Shown one piece after another: positions 1-30,414 of a DNA stretch of 64,000 nucleotides. Under the pieces are notes generated by a model. The model did no database searches. It saw nothing but the letters and a program-made list of their open reading frames with translations, and was not told the DNA's origin. The stretch is taken from the NCBI GenBank assembly GCA_009886115.1, contig VFJJ01000017.1, forward strand, positions 642 to 64,641, in the 5' to 3' direction. A program made the translations under genes and the position numbers. Within the stretch, counting starts at the first letter, position 1; each line of letters opens with the position of its first letter. Origin of the DNA: Actinomycetota bacterium (GTDB taxonomy: Bacteria > Actinomycetota > Acidimicrobiia > IMCC26256 > VFJJ01).

Positions 1-598
1 TGCCCCAGTGCACGGCGATGGGCACGTCGAGCGCCTGAGCCTCGGCCCACAACGGATCGAATGCCGGGTCGTCGAGGTTGCGCCCGTTGACGTTCGGTGG
101 GACCGTGCCGCCCAGCAGGCCCAGCTCGTTGACGCTCCGCCGAAGCTCGTCGACCGCAGCCGACACGTCTCCCAGAGGCAGCGCCGCCATGGCTCGCAGG
201 CGGGTCGGGGCGCCAGAGCAGAACGACGCGTAGTAGTCGTTGCACGCCCGAGCGAGCGCGGTCGCGAATCCCGTGTCACGCACCGAGGTGACCGCGAGCC
301 CGAGGCTGCCGTAGATCACCTGCACATCGAACCCCTCGAGATCGAGATCTGCGAGACGGGCCAGGGGGTCGGAGGCTCCGGGTCGGCTCCCGCCGAGCTT
401 CACGCCCTCGACGCCCTTCGAGTGCGCCTGACGCAACCGCGTGTCGGGGTACAGCTGGCCCTCCATCATGATCCGGCTGAGCCCGAGCGTGTCCTTGACC
501 AGGATGGGTCGCCGCGACCGGTACGTCGGGTCCATGAGATCGGCGATGGCATCGAGTGGCTCGTTGACATGGCCGTCTGCATCGATCACCAGGCTCAT
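1..598 (-). CDS. Amidohydrolase_2 family protein (runs off the window edge; missing from the ORF track)
   Basis: Manual translation from ATG at 598: MSLVIDADGHVNEP...ARLADLDLEGFDVQVIYG...ACNDY...DPLWAEAQALDVPIAVH; GGGGGA RBS upstream. Confidence 0.9.
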   Translation of the reverse strand, partial: MSLVIDADGHVNEPLDAIADLMDPTYRSRRPILVKDTLGLSRIMMEGQLYPDTRLRQAHSKGVEGVKLGGSRPGASDPLARLADLDLEGFDVQVIYGSLGLAVTSVRDTGFATALARACNDYYASFCSGAPTRLRAMAALPLGDVSAAVDELRRSVNELGLLGGTVPPNVNGRNLDDPAFDPLWAEAQALDVPIAVHWG

Positions 599-690
599 CG
601 TCCCCCCAGTGCTGCGCTGTCGTTCTTCATGAGTTCGTGGAGCCGCCGGCCGGCCGCCGCCGGTCGAGTCCGGCCGCTCGCCTTCGGACG

Positions 691-708
691 AAATGAGTAT
701 ACTGAGTC
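691..708. promoter_or_regulatory. Palindromic operator copy 1 (aaaTGAGTATACTGAgtc)
   Basis: Divergent intergenic region; matches five other copies; contains TATACT -10-like hexamers on both strands. Confidence 0.75.
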
Positions 709-763
709 TTTCTCGATGCTGCCCTGGCGCTGTGACGCCACGGAGCCGGAGCGAGGGGGAGTG

Positions 764-1516
764 GTGGACTTCGACGGTCGCGTTGTCATCGTCACGGGAG
801 CGGCTCGAGGGCTGGGTCGGGAGTACGCATCGTTCTTCGCTACCGAGGGAGCGAGCGTCGTGGTCGCCGACATCGCGGCCGACGCCGCCACGGCGACCGC
901 GGCCGACATCGCGCTGACCACCAAGGGGCGCTTGATCGCGGTGGGCGTCGATGTCGCCGACCCGACGAGCACCGTGGCGTTGGCCGAACGCACCGTCGCC
1001 GAGCTCGGCCGCGTCGACGTGCTCGTCAACAACGCGGGCATCTGGGGTGATCTCGAACGCATGTCGCTCATCGACACGCCTGACGCCTACTGGGACACCG
1101 TGATGGGCGTCAACGTCAAGGGCGCGCTGCTGTGCACCCAGGCGGTTGCGCCCACGATGCGGCGACAGCGTTCGGGTCGGATCATCAACATCTCGTCGAT
1201 GGGCGCCTACATGCCCAGTGGCGTGTACGGGGTGAGCAAGCTCGCGCTGAACCAGCTCACCTATGCCCTGGCGTCGGAGCTCGGCCCCGACGGGATCACG
1301 GTGAACGCCGTGGCTCCGGGCGCGATCGACAACGAGGCCACGCAACGTCAGGTCCCGCCGGCGGGCATGGAGAAGATGATCGCGGGCACGTTCATGAAGC
1401 GCGCCGGCACAGCGAGCGACGTCTTTGGGATGATCCGGTATCTCGCCAGCGATGCCGCCGCTTGGGTGACCGGTCAGACGTTCCTGGTGAACGGCGGCTT
1501 CAACACGCGGCTGTGA
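764..1516 (+). CDS. SDR family NAD(P)-dependent oxidoreductase
   Basis: TGAARGLG, NNAG and YGVSK motifs; GAGGGGG RBS before GTG 761/764; the upstream part of ORF 8..1516 is antisense shadow. Confidence 0.92.
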   Translation: MDFDGRVVIVTGAARGLGREYASFFATEGASVVVADIAADAATATAADIALTTKGRLIAVGVDVADPTSTVALAERTVAELGRVDVLVNNAGIWGDLERMSLIDTPDAYWDTVMGVNVKGALLCTQAVAPTMRRQRSGRIINISSMGAYMPSGVYGVSKLALNQLTYALASELGPDGITVNAVAPGAIDNEATQRQVPPAGMEKMIAGTFMKRAGTASDVFGMIRYLASDAAAWVTGQTFLVNGGFNTRL

Positions 1517-1536
1517 GCGGCTCGACAGGAGATCGC

Positions 1537-3222
1537 ATGACCACCCCGATCGCGACCACGATGTCGGGCGGAGAGGCGGTGGCCGTGGCCCTGGAAGGGC
1601 TCGGCGTCAGCCACGTGTTCGGGATCGTCAGCGTGCACAACGTCCCCATCCTCGACGCGATCGCCCGCTCGGGCGTGATCGAGCTCGTCGAGTGCCGACA
1701 CGAGCAAGGGGCCGTGCACGCGGCCGATGGTTACGCCCGGGCGACGGGCCGGCTCGGTGTGGCCGTCACCAGCACCGGACCAGGCGCCGCCAACGCCATG
1801 GGCGGCCTGTTCGAGGCCTACTTCGCGTCGTCGCCCGTCCTCATGATCACCGGCCAGGTCGAATCAGACAGTTATGGCCGGGGGAAGGGCGTGCTGCACG
1901 AGGCCGAGAGCCAGCTCTCGATGCTGCGGACGGTGACCCGTCGCTCTGAGCACGTGCGCCGTCACGGCGAGATCGTCGACGTCATCCACCATGTCGTCGC
2001 CGACATCCTCTCGGGCCGGCCGCGCCCGGGGGCCATCGAGATCCCGATCGACCTCCAGTACGCACACGGCGAGACCGTGGTCCGGCCCCCGTTACCCGTG
2101 GAGCGGCGAGCCCCCGACGAGGCTTCGATCGGGCGGGCCGTCACGCTCGTGCGCGAGGCGCGCCGACCACTCATCGTCGCCGGAGGAGGAGCCGTGGGTG
2201 GCGACGCGGGCGAGGCGCTCGTCGCGCTCGCCGAGCGCCTCGATGCCCCGGTCCTGACGACGATCGAAGGTCGTGGCGCCATCGCCGAGGACCATCCCCT
2301 CGCCATAGGACCCAACACCGACCTGTCGTCCATGGACTCCCTGTGGGCCGACGCCGACGTCGTCCTCGCCGTGGGCACCCGGTTCCAGCAGAACAACAAC
2401 GTGCACAAGGCGCTCACGATCCCAGGCCGGCTGGTCCACCTCGATGCCGACGTCGAGACGATCGGTCGGATCCATCCGGTCGACGTCGCCCTCGTCGGCG
2501 ACGCCCGCCTCGGGCTCGAGGCCATCATCGATGGTCTCGACGGCCTGAGCGGCCGGGGTGACGCAACGCCCGACCCGGCATGGGCCGACGGCGCCCGGGC
2601 ACTCCGGGCCCAGGCCCAGGCCGAGACCCGAGACTCGATCGGCCCCGACCTCGAGTCGATCATGGACTCGATCCGCAGCACGTTGCCCCGGGAGGCGATC
2701 GTCGCCAAGGACGCCACGGTCTCGGCGTACCTCTGGGGCAATCGGATGCTGCCGGTGCTGGCCCCGCGCACCACCCTCCGGCCGGTGTCGATGGCGATCG
2801 GCCCTGGCGTTCCCCTGGCGATCGGCGCGGCCGTGGCGACCGGGCGGACGACCGTGGTGATCCAGGGCGACGGAGGCCTGATGCTGAGCCTGGGAGAGTT
2901 GGCGGTCGCGGTGCAAAAGGAGCTGCCGCTCGTGGTCTGTGTGTTCAACGACCGGGGCTATGGGATCCTGCGCTTCCTGCAGGACATGACGATGGGCGGT
3001 CGGAGGACGGGCGTCGAGCTGGCCACGCCCGATTTCGCCGCGCTGGCCCGGGCCGTCGGCATGCAGGCAGCCAACGTCACCTCGGCTGCCGAGTTCGCGG
3101 CCTCGTTCAGTGCCGCCGTCGAGTCCCGCCGTCCCTGGCTCCTCGACATCGATCTGACGGCCTTGGCGCCCATGCAGATCCGACCGCAACGCCCGAGCAC
3201 GCGCCCACCGCAGGCGCGATAG
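1537..3222 (+). CDS. Thiamine diphosphate-dependent enzyme (acetolactate synthase large subunit-like)
   Basis: RHEQGA catalytic Glu, TSTGPGAAN, GDGG...NDRGYG ThDP motif; AGGAG RBS. Confidence 0.92.
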   Translation: MTTPIATTMSGGEAVAVALEGLGVSHVFGIVSVHNVPILDAIARSGVIELVECRHEQGAVHAADGYARATGRLGVAVTSTGPGAANAMGGLFEAYFASSPVLMITGQVESDSYGRGKGVLHEAESQLSMLRTVTRRSEHVRRHGEIVDVIHHVVADILSGRPRPGAIEIPIDLQYAHGETVVRPPLPVERRAPDEASIGRAVTLVREARRPLIVAGGGAVGGDAGEALVALAERLDAPVLTTIEGRGAIAEDHPLAIGPNTDLSSMDSLWADADVVLAVGTRFQQNNNVHKALTIPGRLVHLDADVETIGRIHPVDVALVGDARLGLEAIIDGLDGLSGRGDATPDPAWADGARALRAQAQAETRDSIGPDLESIMDSIRSTLPREAIVAKDATVSAYLWGNRMLPVLAPRTTLRPVSMAIGPGVPLAIGAAVATGRTTVVIQGDGGLMLSLGELAVAVQKELPLVVCVFNDRGYGILRFLQDMTMGGRRTGVELATPDFAALARAVGMQAANVTSAAEFAASFSAAVESRRPWLLDIDLTALAPMQIRPQRPSTRPPQAR

Positions 3223-3305: not shown

Positions 3306-4454
3306 CTACGCCATCCGCAGGTAGCGCTCGGCGTTCTCAGACATGAGCTTGCGCATGCTGGCTTCGGGGATGTTCCAGCCGAGGACCTCATCGGTCGACT
3401 CGGGGAAGTAGCACTGGTCGTGCGGGTAGTCGGACTGGAACATGATGGCGCCGTCGCCGATCACCTCGATGATCGACCGCACGATCGCCGGGCCCTCGTA
3501 AAGGTCGACACCGCAGAACACGCGGCCGCTCGCGGTGTACTCGAGCGGGCTCTGCTTGCGCGGGGCCAGGGTTGCGTGCAGGTAGTCGGCCTGGCCCTCC
3601 AGACGCACGAGCCACGCCGGGAGCCACCCCGCGCTGCATTCGGCGAATCCGATGCGCAGGTTCGGGAACCGGTCGAAGAGGCCCGAGAGCAACGCGTACC
3701 CGAGCAGGCGCTGTGCACCCCACGGATGCGCTGCCGCCCGGGCCACGGCGATGTGGCCCCAGATGTCGCGATAGCCGGGGAAGTACGGCGGCTCGTAGAA
3801 GAACGAGTGGTGCAGGATCGGAAGGTCGGCATCGTCCATCGCCTCCCAGATCGGGTGCAGATCGGGATCGTCGATGGGCAGGCCCTCCGGCAACACCACG
3901 GTGACCGCGGCGACGCAGCGCTCATCTGCCAGCCGGCGGATCTCGGTGGCCGCCCACGTCGGATCCCAACCGGGCGCCAGCACCGTTGCCTTCAGGCGTG
4001 AGGGGTCGGGCGAGCAGTAGTCGACGATGTACCGGTTGTAGGCCGCGTGGATCTCGGTGGCGAGGTCGTGGTCGATGACGCTGATGGCGTTGGCGAAGGT
4101 GCCGGGGATGATCACGTCGACGTCGCGGCCCTCGGTGTCCATGTCGAGCAACCGGCCGGCCGAGTTCGTCCCCGAAACCCCGGGCTGGGGCTGGCCCCGG
4201 AAGTTGCTTCCCGTCTGGCCCTTGAGCGAGGGGGTACCGCCCCGCTCGGCCGCGGCGGCGTCGCCCTTCTCGCCCATCGCCCGCTTGTAGGGATAGGGGC
4301 TGATGCTCAAGCCGGTGCCGTCACGGCCCTGGAACTCGTACGGCGCGAGCTCAGGTCGGCGACGTCGGAGCGCGTCGGATCCGTAGTCGTACAAGATGTC
4401 GGCGGTCGGTCCGACGTGCGTGTCGGTGTCGATGATCCGATAGCCGTTCCTCAT
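3306..4454 (-). CDS. Amidohydrolase_2 family protein
   Basis: IIDTDTHV, DMDTEGRD, FAECSAGW, FQSDYPH; close paralogue of 27699..28859. Confidence 0.9.
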   Translation of the reverse strand: MRNGYRIIDTDTHVGPTADILYDYGSDALRRRRPELAPYEFQGRDGTGLSISPYPYKRAMGEKGDAAAAERGGTPSLKGQTGSNFRGQPQPGVSGTNSAGRLLDMDTEGRDVDVIIPGTFANAISVIDHDLATEIHAAYNRYIVDYCSPDPSRLKATVLAPGWDPTWAATEIRRLADERCVAAVTVVLPEGLPIDDPDLHPIWEAMDDADLPILHHSFFYEPPYFPGYRDIWGHIAVARAAAHPWGAQRLLGYALLSGLFDRFPNLRIGFAECSAGWLPAWLVRLEGQADYLHATLAPRKQSPLEYTASGRVFCGVDLYEGPAIVRSIIEVIGDGAIMFQSDYPHDQCYFPESTDEVLGWNIPEASMRKLMSENAERYLRMA

Positions 4455-4481
4455 GGTGGGCCCTTCGTCATGTCGTCGTGA

Positions 4482-5060
4482 TCATCCGGCGGCGCTCGAG
4501 CCCCGCATCACCCCGAGGTGCGGGTCGTCGGGGTGTTCGGCCTCGATCCCCAGTGTCCGCAACGTCCGAGACACGCAGGCGTAGAACGCTGCAGTCAGCA
4601 CCAGCTCCACCACGGCGCCGGGATCGAACCACTCGCCGAGCGCGGCGACGGTCTCTCCGGTGGCCTCGACGCCGGAGGTCATCTCGTCGGTCAATGCCAG
4701 GACGGCCCGTTCGACGGGCGAGAAGACCGACGCCGAGGCCGATCGCCAGTGGGCCAAGGCACCGAGCTGTTCCTCGGTGATCCCGAACCGGACGGCTTCG
4801 GGCCAGTGGGCCTGCCATTCGTACGACGCCTCGGTGACCTGTGCGAGCCGCATGATGATGAGCTCCCGCAGCCCACGGTCGGTTTGGGCCCGCTGGCGCA
4901 GGGGCCAGGCCATCGCCGTCCACGCCTTGAGCATCTCGGGGGCGTTGCCGAGGGTCCGGTAGAGCACCGGCACCGGGCGCCCTGCGCCGCGGAAGAGGTC
5001 GAAGACCTCAGCCAACACCGGGTCGGTGGAATCCTCGGGAACCAGGGGGATGCGCACCAT
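4482..5060 (-). CDS. Carboxymuconolactone decarboxylase/AhpD-like protein
   Basis: LRELIIMRLA...YEWQAH and FSPVERAVLALTDEMT patterns; no CxxC. Confidence 0.85.
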   Translation of the reverse strand: MVRIPLVPEDSTDPVLAEVFDLFRGAGRPVPVLYRTLGNAPEMLKAWTAMAWPLRQRAQTDRGLRELIIMRLAQVTEASYEWQAHWPEAVRFGITEEQLGALAHWRSASASVFSPVERAVLALTDEMTSGVEATGETVAALGEWFDPGAVVELVLTAAFYACVSRTLRTLGIEAEHPDDPHLGVMRGSSAAG

Positions 5061-5092: not shown

Positions 5093-5110
5093 AATTGAGC
5101 ATACTCTATT
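5093..5110. promoter_or_regulatory. Palindromic operator copy 2 (aatTGAGCATACTCTatt)
   Basis: In the 53-bp divergent gap; CATACT lies 8 nt before ATG 5114 (probably leaderless). Confidence 0.8.
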
Positions 5111-5113
5111 GCC

Positions 5114-6352
5114 ATGAGCGATCTTCTGGAGGGCGTCCGTGTGATCGAGTCGGCGGTCCTCCTCAACGGCGACACGCTCGGCATGCTCCTGGGTGATCTG
5201 GGGGCCGAGGTCGTCAAGGTCGAGGCCCCCGATACCGGCGACTATCTGCGCGACATGCTCGGCCAGATCGGGCCGCACCAGAGCCCAGCGCACCTGCAGG
5301 TCAACAAGAACAAGCGCAGCCTCACGCTCGACCTGCGTCGCGCGGAGGGCTTGGACGTGTTCTGGGATCTCCTCGCCACCGCCGACGTGTTCGTCGATGG
5401 TTTCGCCGGCGATGCCTGCGACCGCATGGGAATCGGTTACGACGCCCAAGCGTCGCGGCGCCCGGCGATCATCTACTGCCAGGTCTCGGGTTACGGCCGC
5501 CGGGGTCCGTATTCGGCCATCCCGACGCACGGCCAGATGATGAACGCCCAAGCGGCCGCAGTGCCGCTGCGCGTCGACTCCGACGGCTTCATTCGCGCCG
5601 TGCCCAACACGGAGTCGATGGGAGGCACGACCATCGGCGGCGACGGCACGTCAGCCGGCGCCGTGCACGCGGCATTCCACGTGGCCGCTGCGCTCGTGCG
5701 TCGACAGCGGACCGGACGGGGATGCTTCCTCGACGTCTCGGCATCCGATTCAGTCGTCGCGCAAGGCTGGATCGCAGCGGTCTACGGATGGAACGCCGAC
5801 CGGCTGACCGACCGCACAGGTCTCCGGGCCCCCGGTGAGGAGACCAACACGGGGGCCAAGTACCAGTACTACGAGACGGCCGACAATCGATTCGTGCTGT
5901 TCTGCGCGATCGAGCCCAAGTTCTGGCGGGCGTTCTGCCGGGTCTTCGACCGCGCCGACCTCGCCGACATCCAGCGTGAGGACGCCGCCGTCGACTTCGC
6001 CCGTGGTGACGACGCGCTCCGTCACGAGCTCCAGGCGTTGTTTCGCACCCGGACCCAAGCCCAATGGGTCGAGCTCGCGATCGATCACCGCCTCCCGATC
6101 GGCCCGGCTCACCAGGGCGTCGCCAGCCTGCTCGACGATCCGCACGTGCGGGCCCGCCAGATCGTCGTCGACGGATCGCATCCGACCGCCGGGCCGTTCA
6201 CCTATGTCGGCGAGCCGGTGATCGTCGACGGAGAGCCGTACCGACTCCGCCGGCCCGCACCCGGTCTCGGCGAGCACACCGACGAGATCCTCGCCGAGCT
6301 CGGCTACGACGAGGTCCGCATCGCAGGGCTCAAGTCGGCCGGTGTGGTGTGA
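5114..6352 (+). CDS. CaiB/BaiF family III CoA-transferase-like protein
   Basis: LGDLGAEVVKVE, NKNKRSLTLDL, APGLGEHTDEIL. Confidence 0.9.
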   Translation: MSDLLEGVRVIESAVLLNGDTLGMLLGDLGAEVVKVEAPDTGDYLRDMLGQIGPHQSPAHLQVNKNKRSLTLDLRRAEGLDVFWDLLATADVFVDGFAGDACDRMGIGYDAQASRRPAIIYCQVSGYGRRGPYSAIPTHGQMMNAQAAAVPLRVDSDGFIRAVPNTESMGGTTIGGDGTSAGAVHAAFHVAAALVRRQRTGRGCFLDVSASDSVVAQGWIAAVYGWNADRLTDRTGLRAPGEETNTGAKYQYYETADNRFVLFCAIEPKFWRAFCRVFDRADLADIQREDAAVDFARGDDALRHELQALFRTRTQAQWVELAIDHRLPIGPAHQGVASLLDDPHVRARQIVVDGSHPTAGPFTYVGEPVIVDGEPYRLRRPAPGLGEHTDEILAELGYDEVRIAGLKSAGVV

Positions 6353-6437
6353 CCGGTGACGCCAGCCCGCGCTCGGCCGAGCCCGTCCCGGCATCTCGCG
6401 AGACCCCGAGCCCGACGAACGAGTACAGGGAGCTGTG

Positions 6438-7337
6438 ATGCGGTTCAGCGTCTGGCCGTTGAACCACCATCCGATCAGCGACATCATCGACGTGTGCGCC
6501 CACGCCGAGCGCACCGGCTGGGACGGCGTCTGGATGGCCGACCACCTGATGCCGTCGAACCCGCCCCTCGACGCCGGCGTCACCGAGTGCTGGACGGCCA
6601 TGACCGCGATCGCCGCGGTGGTGCCTCGGGTGCGTGTCGGCTCCCTCGTGCTGGGTAACACCTTCCGGCATCCGGCGGTGCTGGCCAAGATGGCCGCAAC
6701 CTTGGCATCACTGGCCCCGGGCCGGTTGGTGCTCGGCATCGGCGCGGGTTGGCAGGAGAACGAGCATCGGGCCTATGGCATCGACCTCCCCGCTCCGCGG
6801 CTGCGCCTGGAACGGCTCGATGAGGCGTGTACCGTCGTGCGCCGCCTTCTCGACGGCGGCACTGCCAGCTCGGAACCCACCGCGCACTATCGGCTCGACG
6901 AGGCCCACCTTGCCCCCCGGCCCAGCGTTCGGGTGCCTCTCCTGCTTGGCGTCAAGGGCGACCGAGCGCTGCGCCTGGCTGCCAGGCACGCCGACGAATG
7001 GAACGTCTGGGCCAGCCCCGAGACCTTGGTCGAGCGGACGGCCGTCCTGCTGCGCCACTGCGAAGCGGAGGGCCGCGACCCGTCCACCATCAGCCGTTCA
7101 GCGCAGGCCATCGTGGCGCTGCCGGCGCCGTCAGCCCCGCCGGCCGACCGCTGGGCGAGATCGGGGATGCCACTGCTGGTCGGCTCGATCACCGAGATGC
7201 AGGACCGGCTCGGCGCCTATCTCGCAGCCGGGCTCGACGAGATGATCGTCCCCGATTTCGCCCTCGGAACCGGCGCGGCCCGACTCGACGCGCTCGACCG
7301 CTTCCTCATTGACGTGGCGGCCCCGTTTCGAGGTTGA
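6438..7337 (+). CDS. LLM-class (probably F420-dependent) oxidoreductase
   Basis: WMADH, RHPAVLAKMAATL, GRLVLGIGAGWQENEH. Confidence 0.88.
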   Translation: MRFSVWPLNHHPISDIIDVCAHAERTGWDGVWMADHLMPSNPPLDAGVTECWTAMTAIAAVVPRVRVGSLVLGNTFRHPAVLAKMAATLASLAPGRLVLGIGAGWQENEHRAYGIDLPAPRLRLERLDEACTVVRRLLDGGTASSEPTAHYRLDEAHLAPRPSVRVPLLLGVKGDRALRLAARHADEWNVWASPETLVERTAVLLRHCEAEGRDPSTISRSAQAIVALPAPSAPPADRWARSGMPLLVGSITEMQDRLGAYLAAGLDEMIVPDFALGTGAARLDALDRFLIDVAAPFRG

Positions 7338-9080: not shown

Positions 9081-9115
9081 GAGCCTCCTCTGGACGCGGC
9101 GCCGTGTTTCGTCGA

Positions 9116-9133
9116 TGATCAGGATACTGAATC
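9116..9133. promoter_or_regulatory. Palindromic operator copy 3 (tgaTCAGGATACTGAatc)
   Basis: Divergent gap 9080/9226; 11/12 match to TCAGTATACTGA. Confidence 0.72.
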
Positions 9134-9225
9134 CGGGCCGTCACGTGCGGCGGGTCCGAAGCTGCCGGGTGCTCGGGAGCGTTCCTCGGTGATCGTGACC
9201 GCTCCCCGACGACCAAGGAGATCCG

Positions 9226-13610: not shown

Positions 13611-13616
13611 TTCATT

Positions 13617-16517: not shown

Positions 16518-16528
16518 GCAGCGCCGCC

Positions 16529-20127: not shown

Positions 20128-20165
20128 CGTGACCCCCCTCGGTCTCGTGATGCTCCAGTCCCAGC

Positions 20166-20185
20166 AATATAGCATACTGAATTAT
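20166..20185. promoter_or_regulatory. Palindromic operator copy 4 (aatATAGCATACTGAattat)
   Basis: Divergent gap; exact 20-bp reverse complement of 21585..21604. Confidence 0.85.
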
Positions 20186-20312
20186 CGAGTGCCAGGAGGC
20201 CCGATCGCTGGGCCGGTGGCCCGCCGAGATGGCGGTCGCGTTGCTCCTGCGCCCGCCAATGAGTGTGCTCTATCGTCGTCGTGTGTCGGCTCGAGCCTGG
20301 GAAGGACCATCC

Positions 20313-20762: not shown

Positions 20763-20783
20763 GTTGCTCGTGAAGGGGCAGAG

Positions 20784-21257: not shown

Positions 21258-21356
21258 GCCGGCCCAGCCCGGCGTGACCCCGTCGGACGACTCGTTTGAC
21301 GCAGACGCGGATGATCCGACCCGCCGGCCGAGCCGGGCGCCGTCGAACTTCGAGAC

Positions 21357-21548
21357 TCACTCGATGACGATGGCCTGTTCGGGGCAACCCAGGGCGGCAC
21401 GGCGGGCCTGGTCCTCGAACTCGGCCGGGACGTCGGCGACGATCGTGTAGGCGTGGCCGTCCTCCTCGCGGAGGCCGAACACGGCGGGCGCGGCGGTCGC
21501 GCAGAGGGTGTGGCCCTGGCACTGCTCGTCGAGCACTCGGACTCTCAT
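21357..21548 (-). CDS. Ferredoxin ([3Fe-4S] type, P450 partner)
   Basis: CQGHTLC...CPEQAI. Confidence 0.92.
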   Translation of the reverse strand: MRVRVLDEQCQGHTLCATAAPAVFGLREEDGHAYTIVADVPAEFEDQARRAALGCPEQAIVIE

Positions 21549-21584
21549 CGACGATCCCCCATCCCGGCGTGCGCGATAGTTGCA

Positions 21585-21604
21585 ATAATTCAGTATGCTA
21601 TATT
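21585..21604. promoter_or_regulatory. Palindromic operator copy 5 (ataatTCAGTATGCTATatt)
   Basis: Divergent gap between the ferredoxin and the amidohydrolase-P450-GntR operon. Confidence 0.85.
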
Positions 21605-22827: not shown

Positions 22828-24056
22828 GCATCGACGCGCCTCGCCGCCCCGATCCCCCGGACGGGCTCGGCGTCGACTTCGATCACCATTCACCAGAATT
22901 CGCCCGCGACCCTTGGCCCGTCCTGGCCGATCTCAGGGCGACGTGCCCGGTGGCTCATAGCAGCGAATACGGTGGATTCTGGGTGATCACCCGCTACGAG
23001 GATATCAAGCAGATAGCTCTCGACGATGAGACCTTCTCGTCAGCTAACTCCATCATCATTCCGCCCAAGAAGAATACTGGACAGCGGAGTATTCCCATCG
23101 AATGTGACCCGCCGGAGTTCCTCGAATACCGGCGGGTGATGCACCCGATGCTCTCGCCGACGGCCGTCGATCGGCTCGAGCCGGCGATCCTCACGTTCGT
23201 GCACCAGTCGATCGACCGGTTCATCGAGCGGGGCGAAGCCGACCTCGTCCACGAGCTCGCCGACCCCGTCCCGGCCATGACCACGCTGTACAAGCTGGGT
23301 CTGCCGGTCGCGGAATGGGAGCGGTTCTCCGATCCGCTGCACCGCACGGTGCTCCTGCGCCAGGACAATCCGCAACGCGCTGGCGTCATGGACGGGCTGC
23401 GGTGGATCCGCGAGCGACTCGTCGCGACCATCGCCGAGCGACGGGCGCACCCCCGCGACGACATGATCAGCTACCTCGTCCAGGCGAGCGTCTTCGACAG
23501 GCCCGTCACCGACGAAGAGGCCTTCGACATGGCGATGCTCGTCATCCAGGGCGGCTTCGACACGACCGGGTCGTCGATCAGCAGCGCGCTCCGCTACCTC
23601 GACGAGCACCACGACGCGCGCCGACGGCTCATCGCCGATCCGTCGCTCATCCCCACCGCCGTCGAGGAGCTGCTGCGCTACGAAGCGCCGCAGTTCGCGC
23701 TGGCCCGTACCGCGACACGCGACGTCGACGTGGCCGGCCGGGCCGTCAAGGCCGGTGACCGGCTGCTGCTGGTCTGGGCCTCGGGCAATCGTGATGACGC
23801 CATGTTCGACGACGCCGACACGGTGGTCCTCGACCGGTTCCCCAACCGGCACATGACCTTCGGGCTCGGAGCCCACCGCTGTCTCGGCTCCACGTTGGCC
23901 CGGCGTCAGATCGTCTTGTCGTTGGGCGCGGTGCTGCGCCGTCTGCCCGACTATCGCATCGATCGTGAGCGAACCGTCAGGGCCGAGACGATCGGAGTCA
24001 CGTACGGCACGTTCTCGATGCCGTGCGACTTCACGCCCGGACCGCGCTACCTCTGA
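22824..24056 (+). CDS. Cytochrome P450
   Basis: GGFDTT I-helix, EELLR, FGLGAHRCLG heme Cys; ATGA overlap. Confidence 0.95.
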   Translation: MSIDAPRRPDPPDGLGVDFDHHSPEFARDPWPVLADLRATCPVAHSSEYGGFWVITRYEDIKQIALDDETFSSANSIIIPPKKNTGQRSIPIECDPPEFLEYRRVMHPMLSPTAVDRLEPAILTFVHQSIDRFIERGEADLVHELADPVPAMTTLYKLGLPVAEWERFSDPLHRTVLLRQDNPQRAGVMDGLRWIRERLVATIAERRAHPRDDMISYLVQASVFDRPVTDEEAFDMAMLVIQGGFDTTGSSISSALRYLDEHHDARRRLIADPSLIPTAVEELLRYEAPQFALARTATRDVDVAGRAVKAGDRLLLVWASGNRDDAMFDDADTVVLDRFPNRHMTFGLGAHRCLGSTLARRQIVLSLGAVLRRLPDYRIDRERTVRAETIGVTYGTFSMPCDFTPGPRYL

Positions 24057-24079
24057 GATGCGCAGCTGGCCGGGAAACG

Positions 24080-24820
24080 ATGAGTAGCCTCGCTCGCGTG
24101 AGTGGAGCCGAGACGAAGGTCAGGCCAACGCCGGGCCAGAAGCTCGGCGAGGTGCTGGCCATCCGCATTGAAGACGAGATCATGGCGGCGGGCTGGCCCG
24201 TGGGTCGCGTCATCGGCTCCGAGGCCGAGCTCATCGAGCGCTACGGCGTGAGCCGGGCCGTGTTCCGTGAGGCGATCCGCATCGTCGACCACCACGGCGT
24301 GGCCGAGATGCGCCGAGGCCCCGGCGGTGGGCTGGTCGTGGTGGCACCGAGCCTCGACGCCGCCGTCCGAACGGTCTCGCTGAATCTCGAGTTCCTCGAC
24401 ATCCGCCCGGAGCAGATCAACGAGGCCCGTCTCGCCATCGAGCTGAGCTGTGTGCGAACGGCGACCGAGCGCATCAACGACGACGGCCGTAGCGCCATTC
24501 GAGCGTTCCTCGATCAGGAGCACGACGCCATCCTCCACGGTCGCGAGTCGGGCCGGGCGAGCGACGATCGCGTCACCAACGACTTCCATCTTCTGATCGC
24601 CGATCTCACCGGGAACCCGGCCATCCAGATGTTCGCTCAGATCCTCGCTCGCGTCACGAGCCGGCACTCGCCGCGCGCCGAGTCGATCGAGGCCGTGGCC
24701 GACGAGGTGCACCGGGTGCACACGCTCATCGCCGAGCCCATCATGGCCGGCGACGTGAAGACGGCCGAGCGTCGGATGACCCGCCATCTCCACGCCGTCG
24801 TCGAGTTCCTCGACGCCTGA
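24080..24820 (+). CDS. GntR family, FadR-subfamily transcriptional regulator
   Basis: wHTH (SEAELIERYGVSRAVFREA...RRGPGGG) plus FCD domain (FHLLIA..GNP, H, RH). Confidence 0.93.
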   Translation: MSSLARVSGAETKVRPTPGQKLGEVLAIRIEDEIMAAGWPVGRVIGSEAELIERYGVSRAVFREAIRIVDHHGVAEMRRGPGGGLVVVAPSLDAAVRTVSLNLEFLDIRPEQINEARLAIELSCVRTATERINDDGRSAIRAFLDQEHDAILHGRESGRASDDRVTNDFHLLIADLTGNPAIQMFAQILARVTSRHSPRAESIEAVADEVHRVHTLIAEPIMAGDVKTAERRMTRHLHAVVEFLDA

Positions 24821-24845
24821 GCCTCGGTCACCAGGAGCGTCTGCG

Positions 24846-25736
24846 ATGGGATCATCGTCGGCCACCGAACGGCTCGAGTTCGTCGACTGTCACGTCCATT
24901 TCTGGGACCACTCGCGGGCCGGCCTGCGTTGGCCCTACCTCGAGCCGGGCTTCGACCATCCCCGCCTCAAGGAGATGCATCGCCTCGACGCGCCGCGCTT
25001 CAGCGTGCCCGAGCTGATCGCCCAAGCGGGTCACGAGGTGTACCTGCGCAAGCTCGTCCACGTGCAGTCGGCCACCGAGGAGGCTCCCGGCCTGGAATCG
25101 GCCTGGATCGAGTCGGTTGCCGACACCTACGGGACGCCCCATGCCATCGTGGCCCGGGCGTCGCTCGTGGCGCCCGACCTGGCGACGGTGCTCGAGGCGA
25201 ACCTCCGCCATCGGCGAGTGCGAGGCGTGCGGGACATGGGTTCACCGGCGACCATCCGGACCGAAGCCTTCGCCAGAGGTTTCGAGCGGGTTGCCGATGC
25301 CGGCCTGAGCGTCGAGGTCCTGGTGCCGTATCCGCTGTTCGATCGGGTCGCCGAGCTGGCCGCCCTCCGGCCCGACGCGATCGTGATCCTCGGACATGCC
25401 GGTCTGCCCGAGCATCGCGACGCCACCTACCACGCGGCGTGGTCGGAGGCCTTGGCTGTGTTCGGCGATCGACCGAACGTGGTGTGCAAGATCTCAGCGC
25501 TGGCGAGCGGTGCCGACCCGAGCTGGACGGCCGGGTCGATCCGACGCTGGGTCGAGCGCTGCATCGAGGTGTTCGGTCCCGACCGGGCGATGCTGGCGAC
25601 GAACTGGCCGATCGACCTCATGTACGGGACCTATCCCCGCCTCGTCTCGGCCTATCGCGACATCACCGGCGCGCTCCCCCAGCCCTCGCGTACGGCGCTG
25701 TTCGGTGCGACTGCCGAGCGCGTGTATCGCATCTGA
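24846..25736 (+). CDS. Amidohydrolase family, lactonase-like
   Basis: VDCHVHFWDH, CKISA, FGPDRAMLATNWP. Confidence 0.88.
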   Translation: MGSSSATERLEFVDCHVHFWDHSRAGLRWPYLEPGFDHPRLKEMHRLDAPRFSVPELIAQAGHEVYLRKLVHVQSATEEAPGLESAWIESVADTYGTPHAIVARASLVAPDLATVLEANLRHRRVRGVRDMGSPATIRTEAFARGFERVADAGLSVEVLVPYPLFDRVAELAALRPDAIVILGHAGLPEHRDATYHAAWSEALAVFGDRPNVVCKISALASGADPSWTAGSIRRWVERCIEVFGPDRAMLATNWPIDLMYGTYPRLVSAYRDITGALPQPSRTALFGATAERVYRI

Positions 25737-25792: not shown

Positions 25793-25810
25793 AAATGAGT
25801 ATCCTCATCA
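25793..25810. promoter_or_regulatory. Palindromic operator copy 6 (aaaTGAGTATCCTCAtca)
   Basis: Between co-oriented genes; TATCCT lies 6 nt before GTG 25812 (probably leaderless). Confidence 0.75.
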
Positions 25811-25811
25811 G

Positions 25812-26966
25812 GTGGCGCATGAGCGGTCGACGGGAACGGTTCTGGTTGTTGGCGACGCCTCCCGCGGAAGCTCGACCGATCGGATCGCGGCTCGCCTGGC
25901 TGCCGCTTCGGGCGGGTGCCGATGGGTGGAGGCGACGGCTGAGCAAGCTACGACGGCCTTGCGCCGACTGGTTCCCGACAGCGCCCGGGTTCCCGGGGTC
26001 GCGGTCGTGGGGATCGGCGCGGCCGGGGTCGCCGCGCTCGATGCCGCAGCGACGGTCGGGCGAATCGCGGGACTGGCGCTCATCGGTGTGCCGCTCGACG
26101 CCGACCGGGTTGCCATCGTGTCGGAGTGGCCCGAGGTCGCGGTGCTCGGTGTCGCAGATCCCGACGACCGTCCGGGGCTTGCTGGGGCGGTTGACGCCTA
26201 CCTCGCGTCGCAGCATGCGGCATCCGATCTGTTCGTCGGACGGGTCGACGACGAGTCGGTGACCGCCACTGCGACCTGGCTGGAAGCGCGCCTCGGATCG
26301 ATTCCGGAGGTCGAGGAGGTGGTCGTCAGCAGCTCCGACGGCTGGGAGATCCACGGCACCCGGTGGCTCCCCGCATCGGCGCGGCCGGTGCCCGGCGTCG
26401 TGCTTCTCCATACCGGCCGCAGTGACCGCACGGCGTTCGCCCGGTTGGAGCGACTGCTCGTCGACGCCGGGATGGCCGTCCTCAACATCGACTGGCGCGG
26501 CCGCGGATCGAGCACCAACCTCGGCTCGTACAGCGCGCTCCCGGTCGAGGTCCGAGACGTGGCCTGGCGCGACGCCGCCGCGGCGCTCGACCATCTCGCA
26601 GCTCATCCCCGGGTCGACCCGGAGCGCCTCGCCACGCTCGGCTCGGTGCACGGAGCCGAGCACGCGGTGCGAGCGGCGCACCGCGATCTGCGAGTGAAGG
26701 CGATCGTGATCCTGACCGGCTACCGCCCCGCCGAGGCCGAGGAAGCTCCCCACCTCACCAGTGGCGTCGTCGATGTGCTGTACGTCACCAGCGAGGGCCA
26801 TGCGATCACCACCGCGGCGATGCGCTCGCTCTACGACGCCTCGCCCGGACGACGCACCCAGTTCGTCATCTATCCCGGTGCGCCCATCGGTTACCAGCTC
26901 TTCGAGCTCGATCCCACCCTCGAGCCGCGGATCGTCTCGTGGCTGGGGGAGGTCCTCGCTCGATGA
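25812..26966 (+). CDS. Alpha/beta-hydrolase-fold protein (partial N-terminal domain plus full domain; atypical triad)
   Basis: VVLLH, IDWRGRGSS, VDPERLATLG. Confidence 0.8.
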   Translation: MAHERSTGTVLVVGDASRGSSTDRIAARLAAASGGCRWVEATAEQATTALRRLVPDSARVPGVAVVGIGAAGVAALDAAATVGRIAGLALIGVPLDADRVAIVSEWPEVAVLGVADPDDRPGLAGAVDAYLASQHAASDLFVGRVDDESVTATATWLEARLGSIPEVEEVVVSSSDGWEIHGTRWLPASARPVPGVVLLHTGRSDRTAFARLERLLVDAGMAVLNIDWRGRGSSTNLGSYSALPVEVRDVAWRDAAAALDHLAAHPRVDPERLATLGSVHGAEHAVRAAHRDLRVKAIVILTGYRPAEAEEAPHLTSGVVDVLYVTSEGHAITTAAMRSLYDASPGRRTQFVIYPGAPIGYQLFELDPTLEPRIVSWLGEVLAR

Positions 26967-27685
26967 CCGGCACAGAACGAGAGGTCCGCTTCCCAGCTGC
27001 CGATGGCTGGGAGCTCGGCGGCATCCTGACCGTGCCCCGCGACGACGGTCACCACCGGGGCCTCCCGCCGGGAGCGGTGTTGGTGCCCGCCTCACGACAC
27101 GAGCGCGACGCTTGGGGCTCGACATCGGCTGCGCTCGCTGAAGCCGGTGTCGGGTCGCTCCGCATCGATATCCGGGGCCGGGGCACGAGCCGAGGCGCGC
27201 TCGACCATGGTGCCATGGGGCCGCTCGCCCGACGGAAGGTCGCGCTCGATGTCGCGGCCGCCGTGTCATTCCTGGCCGACCTCGAGGCCATCGACGGCAC
27301 GCGTCTCGCCGTCGTCGGTGAGCAGGACACCGCGGTGGCTGCAGCCGACGCCGCAGTGCGCGACTCCCGGGTCGTCGCCCTGGCGCTGCTGTCGGCCCGC
27401 AATACGAGCGGTCACCCGTGGCCGCATGCCGGCGCCAACCGTGCTGTGCTGAGCCTGGTGTCGACCGAAGACCGTGAAGGTCTCCGGGCCACGGTCGACG
27501 CCTACCTGAGCGGGGCGCCCGGCAGCCGCATCGAGGTCTTCCGAGGACTCGGTATCGGGATCACGATGGCATCTGTGCGCCAGTTCGAGCATCCCGACGC
27601 CGAGGCCATCGAAGTCCTGATCGGCCGTTGGGTCGCTGATCGATTGCGCCAGCCTGGGGCCACACCGCCCCCGCCCGACCATTGA
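26963..27685 (+). CDS. Alpha/beta-hydrolase-fold protein (atypical triad)
   Basis: ADGWELGGIL, IDIRGRGTS, IDGTRLAVVG; ATGA overlap. Confidence 0.8.
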   Translation: MTGTEREVRFPAADGWELGGILTVPRDDGHHRGLPPGAVLVPASRHERDAWGSTSAALAEAGVGSLRIDIRGRGTSRGALDHGAMGPLARRKVALDVAAAVSFLADLEAIDGTRLAVVGEQDTAVAAADAAVRDSRVVALALLSARNTSGHPWPHAGANRAVLSLVSTEDREGLRATVDAYLSGAPGSRIEVFRGLGIGITMASVRQFEHPDAEAIEVLIGRWVADRLRQPGATPPPPDH

Positions 27686-27698
27686 GAGGACGCCGGGA

Positions 27699-28859
27699 AT
27701 GCGAGATGGTTTCGAGTTCATCGACACCGACCAGCACGTCGGTCCGAACATGGAGACGCTGCACACGCACGCCAGCTCCCGTTTGCTGGCGCGTTGGGAC
27801 GAGCTGGTTCCGTATTTCGTCCCGGTCACCGAGGGCCACCACCTGAGCATCGACCCCATCCCCTTCACCCGGAACCTGAACGTGGGCACGACCGGGGCCC
27901 AAACGACGGCGCAGGGTGCCGGGGCCGAGATACCGCTGCGTAAAGCGGTCAAGCACAACTTCGAGGTGCATCCCGCCCCCGAGGTGAACAACGAGAACTG
28001 GGAAGGCCGACTCGCCGACATGGATCGTGAGGGTGTCGACATCGCGCTCATCTTCCCGGCCACGTTCTCGACGGCCGCAACCGTGCTCGACGTCGAGATG
28101 CAGAGCGAGCTGAACGCTGCCTACCACCGATATCTCGTCGGCTACTGCGGGTCGGAACCCGATCGGCTCAAGGGCGTCGCCCTGGCCAACGCCCGCGACC
28201 CCGAGTCGTCGGCTGCTGAGCTGCGCAGCATCGCCGACGAGCCCTGGCTGGCTGCGGTCGCGGTCATCCTGCCCGAAGGGCTGCCGATCGACGATCCGTC
28301 ACTCGCCATGATCTTCGACGTCATGAACGACGCCGATCTCCCCCTCGTGCACCATTCGTTCTTCTACGAGCCTCCGTACTTCCCCGGGTATCGCGACATC
28401 TGGGGAAACCTCGCCATTGCCCGGATGGCGGCGCATCCGTGGGGCGCGCAACGCCTTGTGGCCCACGTGGCCTTGAGCGGCATGTTCGACCGCTACCCGA
28501 ACCTGCGGATCGGTTTCGCCGAGTGCTCGGGCGGGTGGGTCGGGGGCTGGCTCACCCGGCTCACGTATCAGGCCGACTACCTCGCGTCGCGGCTCCCCGA
28601 GATCAAGCGGACACCCATCGAGTACGCGCAGGACGGGAGGATCTTCTGCGGTATCGAGCTCGACGAGGGCGCCCAGTCAGCCGTCGGGGTCGCCGCGGTC
28701 GTCGGAGACGGCGTGCTCATGTATTCGTCCGACTACCCGCACGGCGGCTGCCGGTTCCCCCGTTCCACCGACATCGCTCTGGAGTGGCGCGAGACGCTCG
28801 GCTCCGACTCGTTCCGCAAGCTCACCAGCACCAACGCTCGCCGCCTGCTGCGCATGTGA
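27699..28859 (+). CDS. Amidohydrolase_2 family protein
   Basis: IDTDQHV, HHSFFYEPPYFPGYRDIWG, SSDYPH. Confidence 0.9.
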   Translation: MRDGFEFIDTDQHVGPNMETLHTHASSRLLARWDELVPYFVPVTEGHHLSIDPIPFTRNLNVGTTGAQTTAQGAGAEIPLRKAVKHNFEVHPAPEVNNENWEGRLADMDREGVDIALIFPATFSTAATVLDVEMQSELNAAYHRYLVGYCGSEPDRLKGVALANARDPESSAAELRSIADEPWLAAVAVILPEGLPIDDPSLAMIFDVMNDADLPLVHHSFFYEPPYFPGYRDIWGNLAIARMAAHPWGAQRLVAHVALSGMFDRYPNLRIGFAECSGGWVGGWLTRLTYQADYLASRLPEIKRTPIEYAQDGRIFCGIELDEGAQSAVGVAAVVGDGVLMYSSDYPHGGCRFPRSTDIALEWRETLGSDSFRKLTSTNARRLLRM

Positions 28860-28887
28860 CGCAGCCTCCAGAACACGGGAGACCCCG

Positions 28888-29196
28888 ATGCAACTCGTCT
28901 ATTTCACGGCAACGCTGCGCGACGCCGCACTCATGGACACCCACCGGGCCATGGTGGCCGACATGCGCCGGCTCGCCGAGTCGATCCCCGGTTTCGTCGA
29001 ATGGCGCGAGTGCCAGGAAGACCTGCTCCTGTGGGGCAACATCGTCTTCGAGACCGGCGAGGCCGTTCTGGCCTGGAAGAGCGACCCACGCCACGGCGCG
29101 ATCCACCAGCGCGGCGAGGAGTCGGTCTACAGCTCCTTCTCCACCCAGGTCTTCGAGACGGTGCGCGAGGCCCGTTGGTCGATCTCCGAGCGCTGA
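28888..29196 (+). CDS. ABM (antibiotic biosynthesis monooxygenase)-like protein
   Basis: IPGFV...WKSDPRH...G...Y dimeric alpha-beta barrel pattern; GGGAGA RBS. Confidence 0.75.
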   Translation: MQLVYFTATLRDAALMDTHRAMVADMRRLAESIPGFVEWRECQEDLLLWGNIVFETGEAVLAWKSDPRHGAIHQRGEESVYSSFSTQVFETVREARWSISER

Positions 29197-29256
29197 CCCG
29201 GGGCATCGAGCCGGGCGGATTCGCTGGCGTCCGGGTGATCGGTGGATGATCGCTCC

Positions 29257-30414
29257 ATGTCGACTCCTGAGCACCGCGGACCGCTGTCGCACCTCAAGGT
29301 GCTCGATCTCTCGCGCATGTATCCCGGCGCGTTCTGCACCCTGTTACTGTCCGATCTTGGAGCCGACGTGCTCAAGGTCGAGGGGCCGGGGGCCGGCGAC
29401 GGGATGCGGTTCATGACGGCCGACCCGTTCAAGGCCGCCCACGTGGCGTTGAACCGCGGGAAGCGCTCGATCACCCTCGACCTCCGCAACCCCAAGGCCC
29501 CCGAGGTGTTGCGCCGTCTCGTCGCCCATGTCGACGTGGTCGTCGAGTCGCACCGTCCCGGAGCGCTCGACAAGCTCGGGATCGGGTACGAGCAACTCCG
29601 CGAGGTGAACCCCAGGCTCATCTGGTGCTCGCTCACGGGTTTCGGACCCGACGGCCCCCACGCCCACGCGCCGGGCCACGACATCACCTATCTCGGGTAT
29701 TCGGGGCTGCTCAGCCTGCTCGGCGGGGGCCGAGGAAAGCCGCCGATCCCCGACATCGTCGTCGCGGTTCCGTTGGGTGGGGTGTTGGGCGCGGTGGGGA
29801 TCCTCGCCGCCGTGGTCGGTCGCGAGCGCACCGGCACCGGCACCAGGGTCGACGCCAGCCTCGTCGACGGGGCCATGTGGCTGATCTCCGAGGACATCGC
29901 CCGCGCTGCGACGTCGCCCGGTCCGGGCTGGGGAACGTTCGCTGCCCGCGAGATCTATCGCTGTGCCGACGGCCTGATGGTGACCGTGGCGGCGTCTGAG
30001 GCCAAGCCCTGGGCGCTGCTGTGCGAAGCGCTGCGACTGCCCGATCTGGTGGCCCACGTCCACGGCGTCGACGAGGAAGCCACCACGGCCCGACTGGCCG
30101 AGGCGTTCGCTGCGCAGCCCGCGGCGCATTGGGTCGTGACCCCGGGCCTGGCCGGCGGCGTGGGCCCCATCAACGGGCCGGCCGACCTGGTCGACGACCC
30201 CCACGTCGTTGCCCGCCAAGGCCTCGTGAACATCGAGGGCACCACGACCCCGGTGCTGGCGAGCCCACTGCGCTTCGACGGCGCCTCGGCGGCCGAGTCG
30301 TCGCACGGCCTGCGACCCGCTCCCGGCCTGGGTGAGCAGACCGAGGCTGCCCTCGCCGCAGCAGGCTTCAGCGCCGAGGAGATTGCCGCCCTGCGCGCCG
30401 ACGGCGTCGTCTGA
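29257..30414 (+). CDS. CaiB/BaiF family (AMACR-like) protein
   Basis: LSDLGADVLKVE, NRGKRSITLDL, GHDITY. Confidence 0.9.
   Translation: MSTPEHRGPLSHLKVLDLSRMYPGAFCTLLLSDLGADVLKVEGPGAGDGMRFMTADPFKAAHVALNRGKRSITLDLRNPKAPEVLRRLVAHVDVVVESHRPGALDKLGIGYEQLREVNPRLIWCSLTGFGPDGPHAHAPGHDITYLGYSGLLSLLGGGRGKPPIPDIVVAVPLGGVLGAVGILAAVVGRERTGTGTRVDASLVDGAMWLISEDIARAATSPGPGWGTFAAREIYRCADGLMVTVAASEAKPWALLCEALRLPDLVAHVHGVDEEATTARLAEAFAAQPAAHWVVTPGLAGGVGPINGPADLVDDPHVVARQGLVNIEGTTTPVLASPLRFDGASAAESSHGLRPAPGLGEQTEAALAAAGFSAEEIAALRADGVV

Follow-up and report, generated by a model that had tools for sequence, protein, structure and literature searches.

Regulators of the FadR subfamily of GntR proteins bind palindromic operators, for which the consensus NyGTM-N0-1-KACNy has been given (PMC4494728). 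The GntR/FadR repressor DipR binds six GTATAC-centred sites, as demonstrated by electrophoretic mobility shift assay and DNase I footprinting; there is one site for each transcription unit of its own six-unit cluster, and the substrate releases DipR from the DNA (PMC11472048). Further GTA-TAC binders named in the same paper are Atu1419 of Agrobacterium fabrum, a VanR-type regulator with the operator ATGTATACAT, and UxuR of Geobacillus (PMC11472048). Here we describe a stretch of 64,000 nucleotides (hereafter the window) of contig VFJJ01000017.1, from the genome of an uncultured member of the Acidimicrobiia. Its first 30 kb carry six copies of an 18-bp A/T-rich palindrome, which probably serve as operators of a FadR-subfamily GntR regulator encoded in the same region at 24080-24820 on the + strand. 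A previous interpretation (the sequence-only reading) had proposed that the six copies define a catabolic regulon of about 30 kb.

The palindrome was read directly in the sequence at all six positions at which it had been reported: AAATGAGTATACTGAGTC at 691-708 (site 1), AATTGAGCATACTCTATT at 5093-5110 (site 2), TGATCAGGATACTGAATC at 9116-9133 (site 3), AATATAGCATACTGAATT at 20166-20183 (site 4), AATTCAGTATGCTATATT at 21587-21604 (site 5) and AAATGAGTATCCTCATCA at 25793-25810 (site 6). The consensus of the dyad is about AATTnAGTATACTnAATT, 18 bp in length, with the half-site AATTnAGTA. Because the G+C content of the window is 68-71% throughout, such A/T-rich 18-mers are conspicuous. The proposed fit with the A/T-flanked palindromes of FadR-type regulators holds, GTA-TAC being the N0 case of the published consensus (PMC4494728) and the flanks being AATT. 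Deviations from the GTATAC core are of one base: GCATAC at 5093 and 20166, GGATAC at 9116 and GTATCC at 25793, and the GTATGC of 21587 is the reverse complement of GCATAC. When the pattern AATNNAGTATACTNNATT was searched with up to 3 mismatches, it fitted four of the six sites (691 with 3 mismatches; 5093, 20166 and 21587 with 1 each), and none of 100 dinucleotide-preserving shuffles of the window contained a match.

A log-odds matrix was derived from the six sites, each taken in both orientations. As the gene map confirmed, all six sites are intergenic and fill the five divergent gaps of the first 30 kb (approximately 598/761, 5060/5114, 9080/9226, 20127/20313 and 21548/21667), one site each, plus one co-oriented gap. 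Site 1 (matrix score 26.2) separates an Amidohydro_2 gene (-, ATG at 598) from an operon of an SDR and a thiamine diphosphate (ThDP) enzyme (+, GTG at 761 or 764), and site 2 (29.5) separates the CMD-Amidohydro_2 genes (-) from a CaiB-type CoA-transferase gene followed by that of a luciferase-like oxidoreductase (LLM; +). Site 3, the weakest (21.9), in which only the right half-site is good, stands between an Amidohydro_3 gene (-, GTG at 9080) and an Amidohydro_2-BNR operon (+, ATG at 9226). Site 4 (29.3) lies between the transporter operon (-, substrate-binding protein ATG at 20127) and the GlcG-RidA genes (+), and site 5 (29.3), putatively autoregulatory, between a ferredoxin gene (-) and the operon encoding a DitZ-like protein, a cytochrome P450, the GntR regulator and a lactonase-like protein (+). 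Site 6 (24.0) occupies the co-oriented gap before the hydrolase GTG at 25812. A possible seventh site, CAATGAGTGTGCTCTATC at 20257-20274, upstream of the likeliest GlcG start (ATG 20313), is weak and uncertain; it scored 15.8 (15.0 in a further matrix run), just below the best unrelated match in the genome (16.1).

The same matrix was used to scan the whole assembly (5,446,417 bases, 224 contigs). Only ten positions scored 19.6 or more, in two loci: the six window sites (21.9-29.5) and four positions on another contig, C80; the next best score was 16.1. In a leave-one-out analysis the omitted sites were outscored only by other window or C80 sites; the genome positions that equalled or exceeded the score of the omitted site numbered 6, 3, 10, 3, 3 and 8. 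An independent second matrix, derived from 24 sites of the related genome G008, placed five window sites and the four C80 sites at the top nine positions of this genome, and site 9116, with 16.0, at a tied rank 10-11 with one unrelated place. According to the gene maps eight of the ten sites are in divergent and two in co-oriented gaps. A crude whole-genome gene call based on G+C content at third codon positions (GC3) yielded 3557 genes and 644 divergent gaps; this caller misses genes and flags only five divergent-gap sites. The count of eight was made from the gene maps. The concern that a matrix of this kind might pick up most divergent promoters genome-wide can be set aside, since no more than 8 of the approximately 644 divergent gaps in the crude gene call carried a site. 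Within the window no position past 25793 reached 16, in agreement with the earlier statement that sites are absent beyond 26 kb, and between 30 and 64 kb the matrix scan found at least five divergent gaps without a site and no position above 13.1. With ten sites genome-wide and these site-free divergent gaps, the motif is specific and does not simply arise from -10 boxes placed back to back. At 59330-59365, in the long divergent gap 59277-60356, there are tandem 9-nt units (GACTCAGTT, at least four copies) that are weak matrix matches (12.9-13.1).

The sites do overlap -10-like hexamers, as had been noticed; this is inherent in the motif, whose core AGTATACT includes TATACT on either strand. 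It could be argued that the motif functions mainly in the promoter, as an extended -10 region of back-to-back TATACT boxes common to co-expressed, partly leaderless genes, and that no dedicated repressor recognizes it. Besides the presence of TANNNT on both strands of the core, the position of some start codons speaks for this. The CaiB ATG at 5114 and the hydrolase GTG at 25812 lack a Shine-Dalgarno sequence and follow, at a distance of 6 nt, the hexamers TACTCT of site 2 and TATCCT of site 6, respectively; an LLM start at 43915 of C80 also lacks a Shine-Dalgarno sequence, and the three starts are located 6-7 nt past the hexamer. All three may be leaderless. The sequence-only reading had spoken of two apparently leaderless starts; at 5114 and 25812 the absent Shine-Dalgarno sequence and the 6-nt spacing were observed, and leaderless status is possible; they are the only two starts of the window that look so. 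Shine-Dalgarno-containing leaders precede the SDR gene (GTG 761/764), the substrate-binding protein gene (ATG 20127), the ferredoxin gene (ATG 21548), the Amidohydro_3 gene (GTG 9080) and the DitZ-like gene (ATG 21667). We nevertheless regard a mere promoter element as very unlikely: the flanks AATTnAG and CTnAATT are dyad-symmetric over 18 bp, a property that a sigma factor does not need, there are only ten sites among thousands of promoters, the co-oriented sites retain both half-sites, and, as described below, the motif follows one regulator orthogroup across genomes.

The four further copies of the operator on C80 are at 39359, 43917, 49538 and 51258, three in divergent gaps and one in a co-oriented gap. 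They front a cluster at 34-58 kb of that contig which is paralogous to the island in its transporter and enzymes. The island is therefore not the whole regulon, and the operator has ten copies in place of the six first counted. The C80 cluster encodes Amidohydro_3, a LivHM-ABC fusion (940 aa), SDR, gamma-glutamyltranspeptidase, Amidohydro_2, LLM, class IV aminotransferase, an MFS-ABC fusion, TauD, SGL lactonase, Peripla_BP_6, ThDP enzyme, acyl-CoA dehydrogenases and enoyl-CoA hydratase. Pfam detected no regulator in it; the genome encodes seven FCD regulators, of which the window's contig carries one and C80 none. The gamma-glutamyltranspeptidase open reading frame (ORF; C80 40224-42095, - strand) matches Pfam in two stretches and shows a GC3 phase shift near C80 41340; it may contain a frameshift or consist of two genes.

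The proposed repressor has the two-domain architecture of the FadR subfamily. Its winged helix-turn-helix domain (PF00392) was recognized with 28.4 bits (cut-off 27; E 1.3e-6) at residues 46-101 of the ORF read from 24023, and this region is strongly conserved among the orthologues. The FCD domain (PF07729) scored 60 bits (cut-off 24.3), or 61.4 bits in the genome search; histidines were seen by eye in the C-terminal half of the translated protein. The gene is single-copy in the genome at E<=1e-20, and Pfam identified no other DNA-binding regulator among the 26 genes of the island.

Homologues were searched at E<=1e-35 in 264 genomes of the same order, and 20 genomes, the unpublished G127 among them, were found to carry one. 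In an alignment of the recognition helix and wing, 16 of these belonged to the SRAVFRE...MRRGPGGG type (G170 and G074 being minor variants) and four (G060, G080, G083 and G092) to the SRNxFRE...MREGRxGG type. Loci of approximately 3.6 kb around the regulator genes were scanned with the matrix at a threshold of 16.5. A site reaching this score was present in 12 of the 16 genomes of the first type (G000, G008, G016, G007, G174, G255, G197, G256, G232, G235, G238 and G071), in none of the four genomes of the second type, and none of seven more distant paralogue loci had a match above 11. The related genomes are not independent samples, hence no P-value is given. Genome-wide counts of a strict pattern relative to a reversed-pattern control were 7/1 in G000, 26/0 in G008, 6/0 in G007, 6/0 in G174 and 4/1 in G170, all of which have the orthologue. 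In the sister species G001 the regulator has no homologue, and the motif does not rise above the control level (1 vs 1). In many relatives the regulator is a tandem pair of paralogues, whose wings differ slightly after GPGGG (LVV vs LFV); among the loci surveyed this applied to G007, G174, G127, G255, G197, G256, G232, G235, G209, G238 and G071, and G000 and G008 have a single gene.

Several observations weigh against the assignment of the dyad to this regulator as its repressor. The score of the GntR domain is barely over the Pfam cut-off (28.4 vs 27 bits). Repression, rather than activation, is suggested by the position of the sites alone. The core is at the same time a -10-like hexamer, so part of its conservation could reflect promoter function. 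At 9116 and 25793 the sites are weaker, a good half-site being paired with a poor one, and they exceed the limit of 3 mismatches; they nonetheless score 21.9 and 24.0 on the six-site matrix, as compared with 16.1 for the best unrelated genome position. The window's own sites were the training set of the matrix applied to the other genomes. No site of 16.5 or more is present near the gene in four of the 16 genomes that share the helix and wing type, namely G170, G127, G209 (best 14.9) and G074 (13.5); the contigs that hold the G170 and G127 loci do not exceed 3.3 kb. Of the 16 genomes with an orthologue, only 5 show enrichment of the strict pattern; in the other 11 it is not enriched because the half-sites have drifted (e.g. 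GAGTACACTC), and there the link consists of matrix matches beside the gene. Finally, G229 (4/0), G249 (4/1) and G053 (4/1) show a few pattern matches and have no homologue.

The last finding would be expected if the dyad were a real operator bound by some other transcription factor encoded elsewhere, with the GntR gene at 24080 merely one of its targets; the C80 cluster, which has sites and no local regulator, must be controlled in trans in any case. We consider this improbable. The motif adjoins GntR orthologues in 12 of 16 genomes from several families and tracks the helix and wing type, with none of the four variant genomes positive; motif and regulator are jointly absent from G001. Apart from the GntR orthologues, one MarR-like ORF was the only regulator found among the site-flanking genes (two clusters of G000 and 76 ORFs of G008). 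Moreover, a GTATAC core is a known operator type of the FadR subfamily. Each of the computational tests applied here spoke in favour of the regulator at 24080. Control of the island, including its own operon, by the regulator at 24080 thus remains our preferred interpretation, on account of the specificity of the motif, the regulator being the only one in the island, and their co-occurrence in other genomes; what has to be corrected is the extent of the regulon, which exceeds the island, and the membership of the last CaiB gene, which is doubtful.

Over 20 nt (20166-20185 vs 21585-21604) site 5 is the exact reverse complement of site 4, and the identity ends there. These inverted copies flank a 1.4-kb segment with the GlcG, RidA and ferredoxin genes. 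Their identity could be chance between two strong palindromes, gene conversion or the mark of an invertible segment. In its most general form the last idea would make all copies remnants of a short repeat or recombination element, for example one that inverts the segment between sites 4 and 5. We find this hardly credible. The repeat stops at 20 nt, the other sites differ from each other and share operator positions only, all are at promoters, and other families of the order have equivalent sites in front of the same gene families. Contigs of related strains showed no inversion joint at sites 4 and 5, though contigs can miss rare forms.

Sequence from a related strain (run X7) covered the gap 9050-9225 around site 3. 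It differs by seven substitutions and one deletion outside the site; the sole substitution within the 18 bp, C>T at 9133, is towards the consensus and makes the right half-site perfect (TACTGAATT). A one-base insertion was called just behind 9134, immediately outside the site. We take this distribution as a weak hint of a footprint.

If the dyad is the operator of the GntR protein, the following mechanism can be envisaged. A dimer of the regulator would bind each dyad and thereby keep RNA polymerase from one or both of the divergent promoters. Promoter occlusion is suggested by the location of the sites in promoter gaps, by the core AGTATACT, which represents TANNNT on both strands, and by analogy with DipR. 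In the island this would silence about 11 transcription units with about 25 genes, among them the regulator's own operon through site 5, which is located upstream of it, and the four promoter gaps in the paralogous C80 cluster would be repressed in trans. Binding of a small-molecule effector to the FCD domain would release the repressor. The substrate would be taken up by a binding-protein-dependent importer of the Liv type with an MFS-fused LivF ATPase, and would then undergo oxidative, CoA-thioester-based breakdown as a carboxylic acid, perhaps an alicyclic or terpenoid-like one.

The gene map of the island was obtained by GC3 frame analysis, Pfam and NCBIfam searches and inspection of start codons, and comprises 26 genes in 1-30.4 kb. 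Placement and gene content agree with the sequence-only reading, the ferredoxin included, with two amendments that concern the DitZ-like oxygenase and the last CaiB gene. The leftmost gene, Amidohydro_2 at 2-598 (-), runs off the start of the window and of the contig. It is followed by the SDR-ThDP operon at 761-3222 (+; SDR to 1516, PRK07064-like ThDP enzyme at about 1513-3222), the nearest solved structures to the ThDP enzyme being BbmA, glyoxylate carboligase and acetolactate synthases. Next are a CMD-family protein and a 382-aa Amidohydro_2 protein (3306-5060, -), the CaiB-type CoA-transferase with an F420-type LLM (5114-7337, +), Amidohydro_3 (7374-9080, -), and a fuconolactonase-like Amidohydro_2 protein with a BNR/sortilin-like protein (9226-12026, +). 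The uptake operon (12099-20127, -) encodes Peripla_BP_6, an MFS-LivF fusion (726 aa), a LivH-LivM-LivG fusion (966 aa) and a DHA2 MFS protein. Pfam and NCBIfam searches of its ORFs 13617-16517, 16529-18709 and 18709-20175 showed BPD_transp_2 permeases, two ABC ATPases and Peripla_BP_6, with MFS_1 fused to the LivF-like ATPase; these are the components of a HAAT-type importer. The same pair, an MFS-ABC and a LivHM-ABC fusion, is present on C80 and in G008.

On the other side of site 4 are the GlcG/HbpS-like and RidA-like genes (20313-21257, +) and, at 21357-21548 (-), the gene of a 63-aa ferredoxin, which is presumably of the single-cluster type as judged by its cysteine pattern. A longer ORF in another frame, 21241-21585 (-), was rejected as a gene since its translation is rich in Arg and Pro and out of frame. 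The operon at 21667-25736 (+) consists of the DitZ-like gene (21667-22827), the P450 gene (22824-24056), the GntR gene (24080-24820) and a gene for a lactonase-like Amidohydro_2 protein (24846-25736). It is followed by the operon at 25812-29196 (+), which codes for a DLH-type alpha/beta hydrolase, a 248-aa hydrolase-like protein, a 386-aa Amidohydro_2 protein and a 102-aa protein that had been called ABM and for which no Pfam match was obtained. A second CaiB-type CoA-transferase is encoded at 29242-30414 (+).

The limits of the island were examined by comparison with the G001 genome. From 29206 to at least 39985 the window aligns with G001 DNA as one syntenic block of 78-88% identity, and between 1 and 29.2 kb only scattered pieces of paralogue-level similarity (64-83%) were found. 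The break is just upstream of the CaiB gene at 29242, and the G001 contig C7 ends 590 nt past it. As synteny begins only at 29206, the 29-kb region is an accessory island relative to G001. The extent of about 30 kb originally assigned to the regulon holds for 1-29.2 kb, where the regulator and operators are located; the CaiB gene at 29242-30414 is on the backbone shared with G001. Its position on the conserved side of the break makes the membership of this second CaiB gene in the regulon doubtful. At the left the end of the island is open, the contig starting 641 nt before the window. DNA nearly identical to the stretch occurs in freshwater-sediment metagenome runs, among others. Contigs of the RNA-library run X8 cover parts of it (e.g. 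19076-19586 and 20571-21508); they were rejected as transcript evidence, as they show no starts, strand or level and DNA may have been present in the library.

The target genes are conserved in relatives. The closest orthologue, with 56% identity, is that of G008, whose regulator gene is preceded by a site at a distance of about 250 bp; more than 35 matrix hits above 15 were found in 18 fetched regions of this genome, nearly all at the 5' ends of genes. Among the 76 ORFs scanned, the genes flanking the sites encode 2 MFS-ABC and 3 LivHM-ABC fusions, 6 Peripla_BP_6, 6 Amidohydro_2, 3 Amidohydro_3, 2 ThDP, 2 LLM, CMD, CaiB, 2 SDR, 3 ACAD and 2 ALDH proteins, a DLH-type hydrolase, 2 BNR proteins, P450, ferredoxin, ferredoxin reductase, 2 AMP-ligases, TauD and SGL. 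These are largely the families of the window island, and certain modules recur: Amidohydro_2-CMD divergent from a CaiB operon, Amidohydro_2 followed by BNR, and SDR with ThDP. Several G008 hits, mostly weaker ones, beside PolX, VIT1/CorA, Opp and cupredoxin genes may be false positives. Around the sites and regulators of G007, G174, G238, G255 and G232, which represent more distant lineages, we found genes for acyl-CoA dehydrogenases, enoyl-CoA hydratases, thiolases, ChsH2-like protein, AMP-ligase and aldehyde dehydrogenase.

The protein encoded at 21667-22827 matched DitZ (PDB 8UYR) with E 1.5e-78 over residues 6-374 vs 4-382, and PtmU3 (6OMP) with E 1.6e-36; the N-terminal DDHxxEP, SEGG and CDYPH stretches are shared with DitZ. 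DitZ, a diiron enzyme that hydroxylates diterpenoids, belongs to the amidohydrolase-related dinuclear oxygenase (ARO) superfamily (PMC13154177). On the basis of this nearly full-length similarity the protein is classified as a DitZ-like diiron oxygenase, so at least one of the seven amidohydrolases counted in the sequence-only reading is an oxygenase. The stop codon of its gene overlaps the P450 start (ATGA at 22824), and the ferredoxin is encoded divergently. That an ARO is combined here with a P450 and with a small ferredoxin instead of a Rieske ferredoxin may interest enzymologists. Two other Amidohydro_2 proteins of about 380 aa (3306-4454 and 27699-28859) gave about equally weak matches to LigW-type decarboxylases and ARO oxygenases, and the two of about 300 aa resemble lactonases. 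For the substrate-binding protein no match was found among solved structures or in NCBIfam.

The DitZ-like oxygenase, CaiB, LLM and ThDP enzymes, together with the beta-oxidation-type genes of the related loci, lead us to a tentative guess, namely that the cargo carries out CoA-thioester-based oxidation of an alicyclic or terpenoid-like acid. A broader and rather unlikely possibility is that the regulon is a horizontally acquired multi-paralogue system by which freshwater or sediment Acidimicrobiia import and degrade terpenoid-like carboxyl-rich alicyclic acids, and that the repressor core AGTATACT also acts as the -10 box for a pair of back-to-back and in part leaderless promoters, one dimer switching both directions. 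MFS-fused Liv-type importers, DitZ-like oxygenases, P450 with ferredoxin, ThDP enzyme, CaiB and beta-oxidation-type enzymes could be the parts of such a system. A literature search did not find this combination of enzymes described in Acidimicrobiia.

Through the operator, about 45 genes whose role is unknown become accessible by sequence in this uncultured member of the Acidimicrobiia, as do many more in its relatives. It would group as one unit the MFS-LivF hybrid importers, which are unstudied, the DitZ-like oxygenase, P450 with ferredoxin, ThDP, LLM and CaiB; the effector of the regulator would therefore lead directly to the substrate. As a pair, motif and regulator can also serve to retrieve the same regulon from other genomes. 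Neither the regulator group nor the motif was found described in the literature searched, but the supplementary tables of predicted FadR-subfamily motifs in PMC4494728, which include actinobacterial ones, could hold it.

How the locus compares with described systems depends on the part considered. In the enzymes, the likeness to the AROs DitZ and PtmU3 extends over nearly the full length of the 21667-22827 protein and includes the N-terminal stretches of DitZ; its neighbours are a P450 and a small ferredoxin and not a dit cluster, and it is known from its sequence alone. The regulator has the best PDB matches to NanR (6ON4, E 5e-10) and PdhR (3.5e-8), and NanR, LldR and PdhR of E. coli, which have the same two-domain architecture, are its best named relatives. 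With 80.3 vs 260 bits for NanR, 54.4 vs 311 for LldR and 30.7 vs 330 for PdhR it stays far under the NCBIfam family cut-offs, and it is therefore not an orthologue of any of them. NanR differs also in binding GGTATA direct repeats (PMC8012715), and most FadR-subfamily sites have a gap of 3 nt between GT and AC, as opposed to 2 nt here (PMC4494728). Closer in the operator are Atu1419 and UxuR, FCD-type GntR regulators that repress catabolic genes and recognize a spacer-less GTA-TAC core (PMC11472048). The bases flanking this core in their sites are unlike those of the window. Atu1419 is reportedly a tetramer.

The closest precedent is DipR of the dip dipicolinate cluster in Alcaligenes faecalis JQ135. 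There, too, a FadR-family repressor gene lies inside its own catabolic cluster and a GTATAC palindrome core is present at each transcription unit, including that of the repressor gene, one footprint reading ...AGTATAC... (PMC11472048). DipR is proteobacterial, and the element defined for it is a 6-bp core, in contrast to the 18 bp with AATT flanks described here (PMC11472048). Our locus further differs in its unrelated cargo (hybrid Liv/MFS importer, DitZ-like protein, P450 and CoA-transferases) and in the ten sites distributed over two loci, and it has been seen only as DNA sequence. Local repressors of the FadR family that act on several operators within a catabolic island are well known; the circuit in this genome is an ordinary one of this kind with an uncharacterised cargo.

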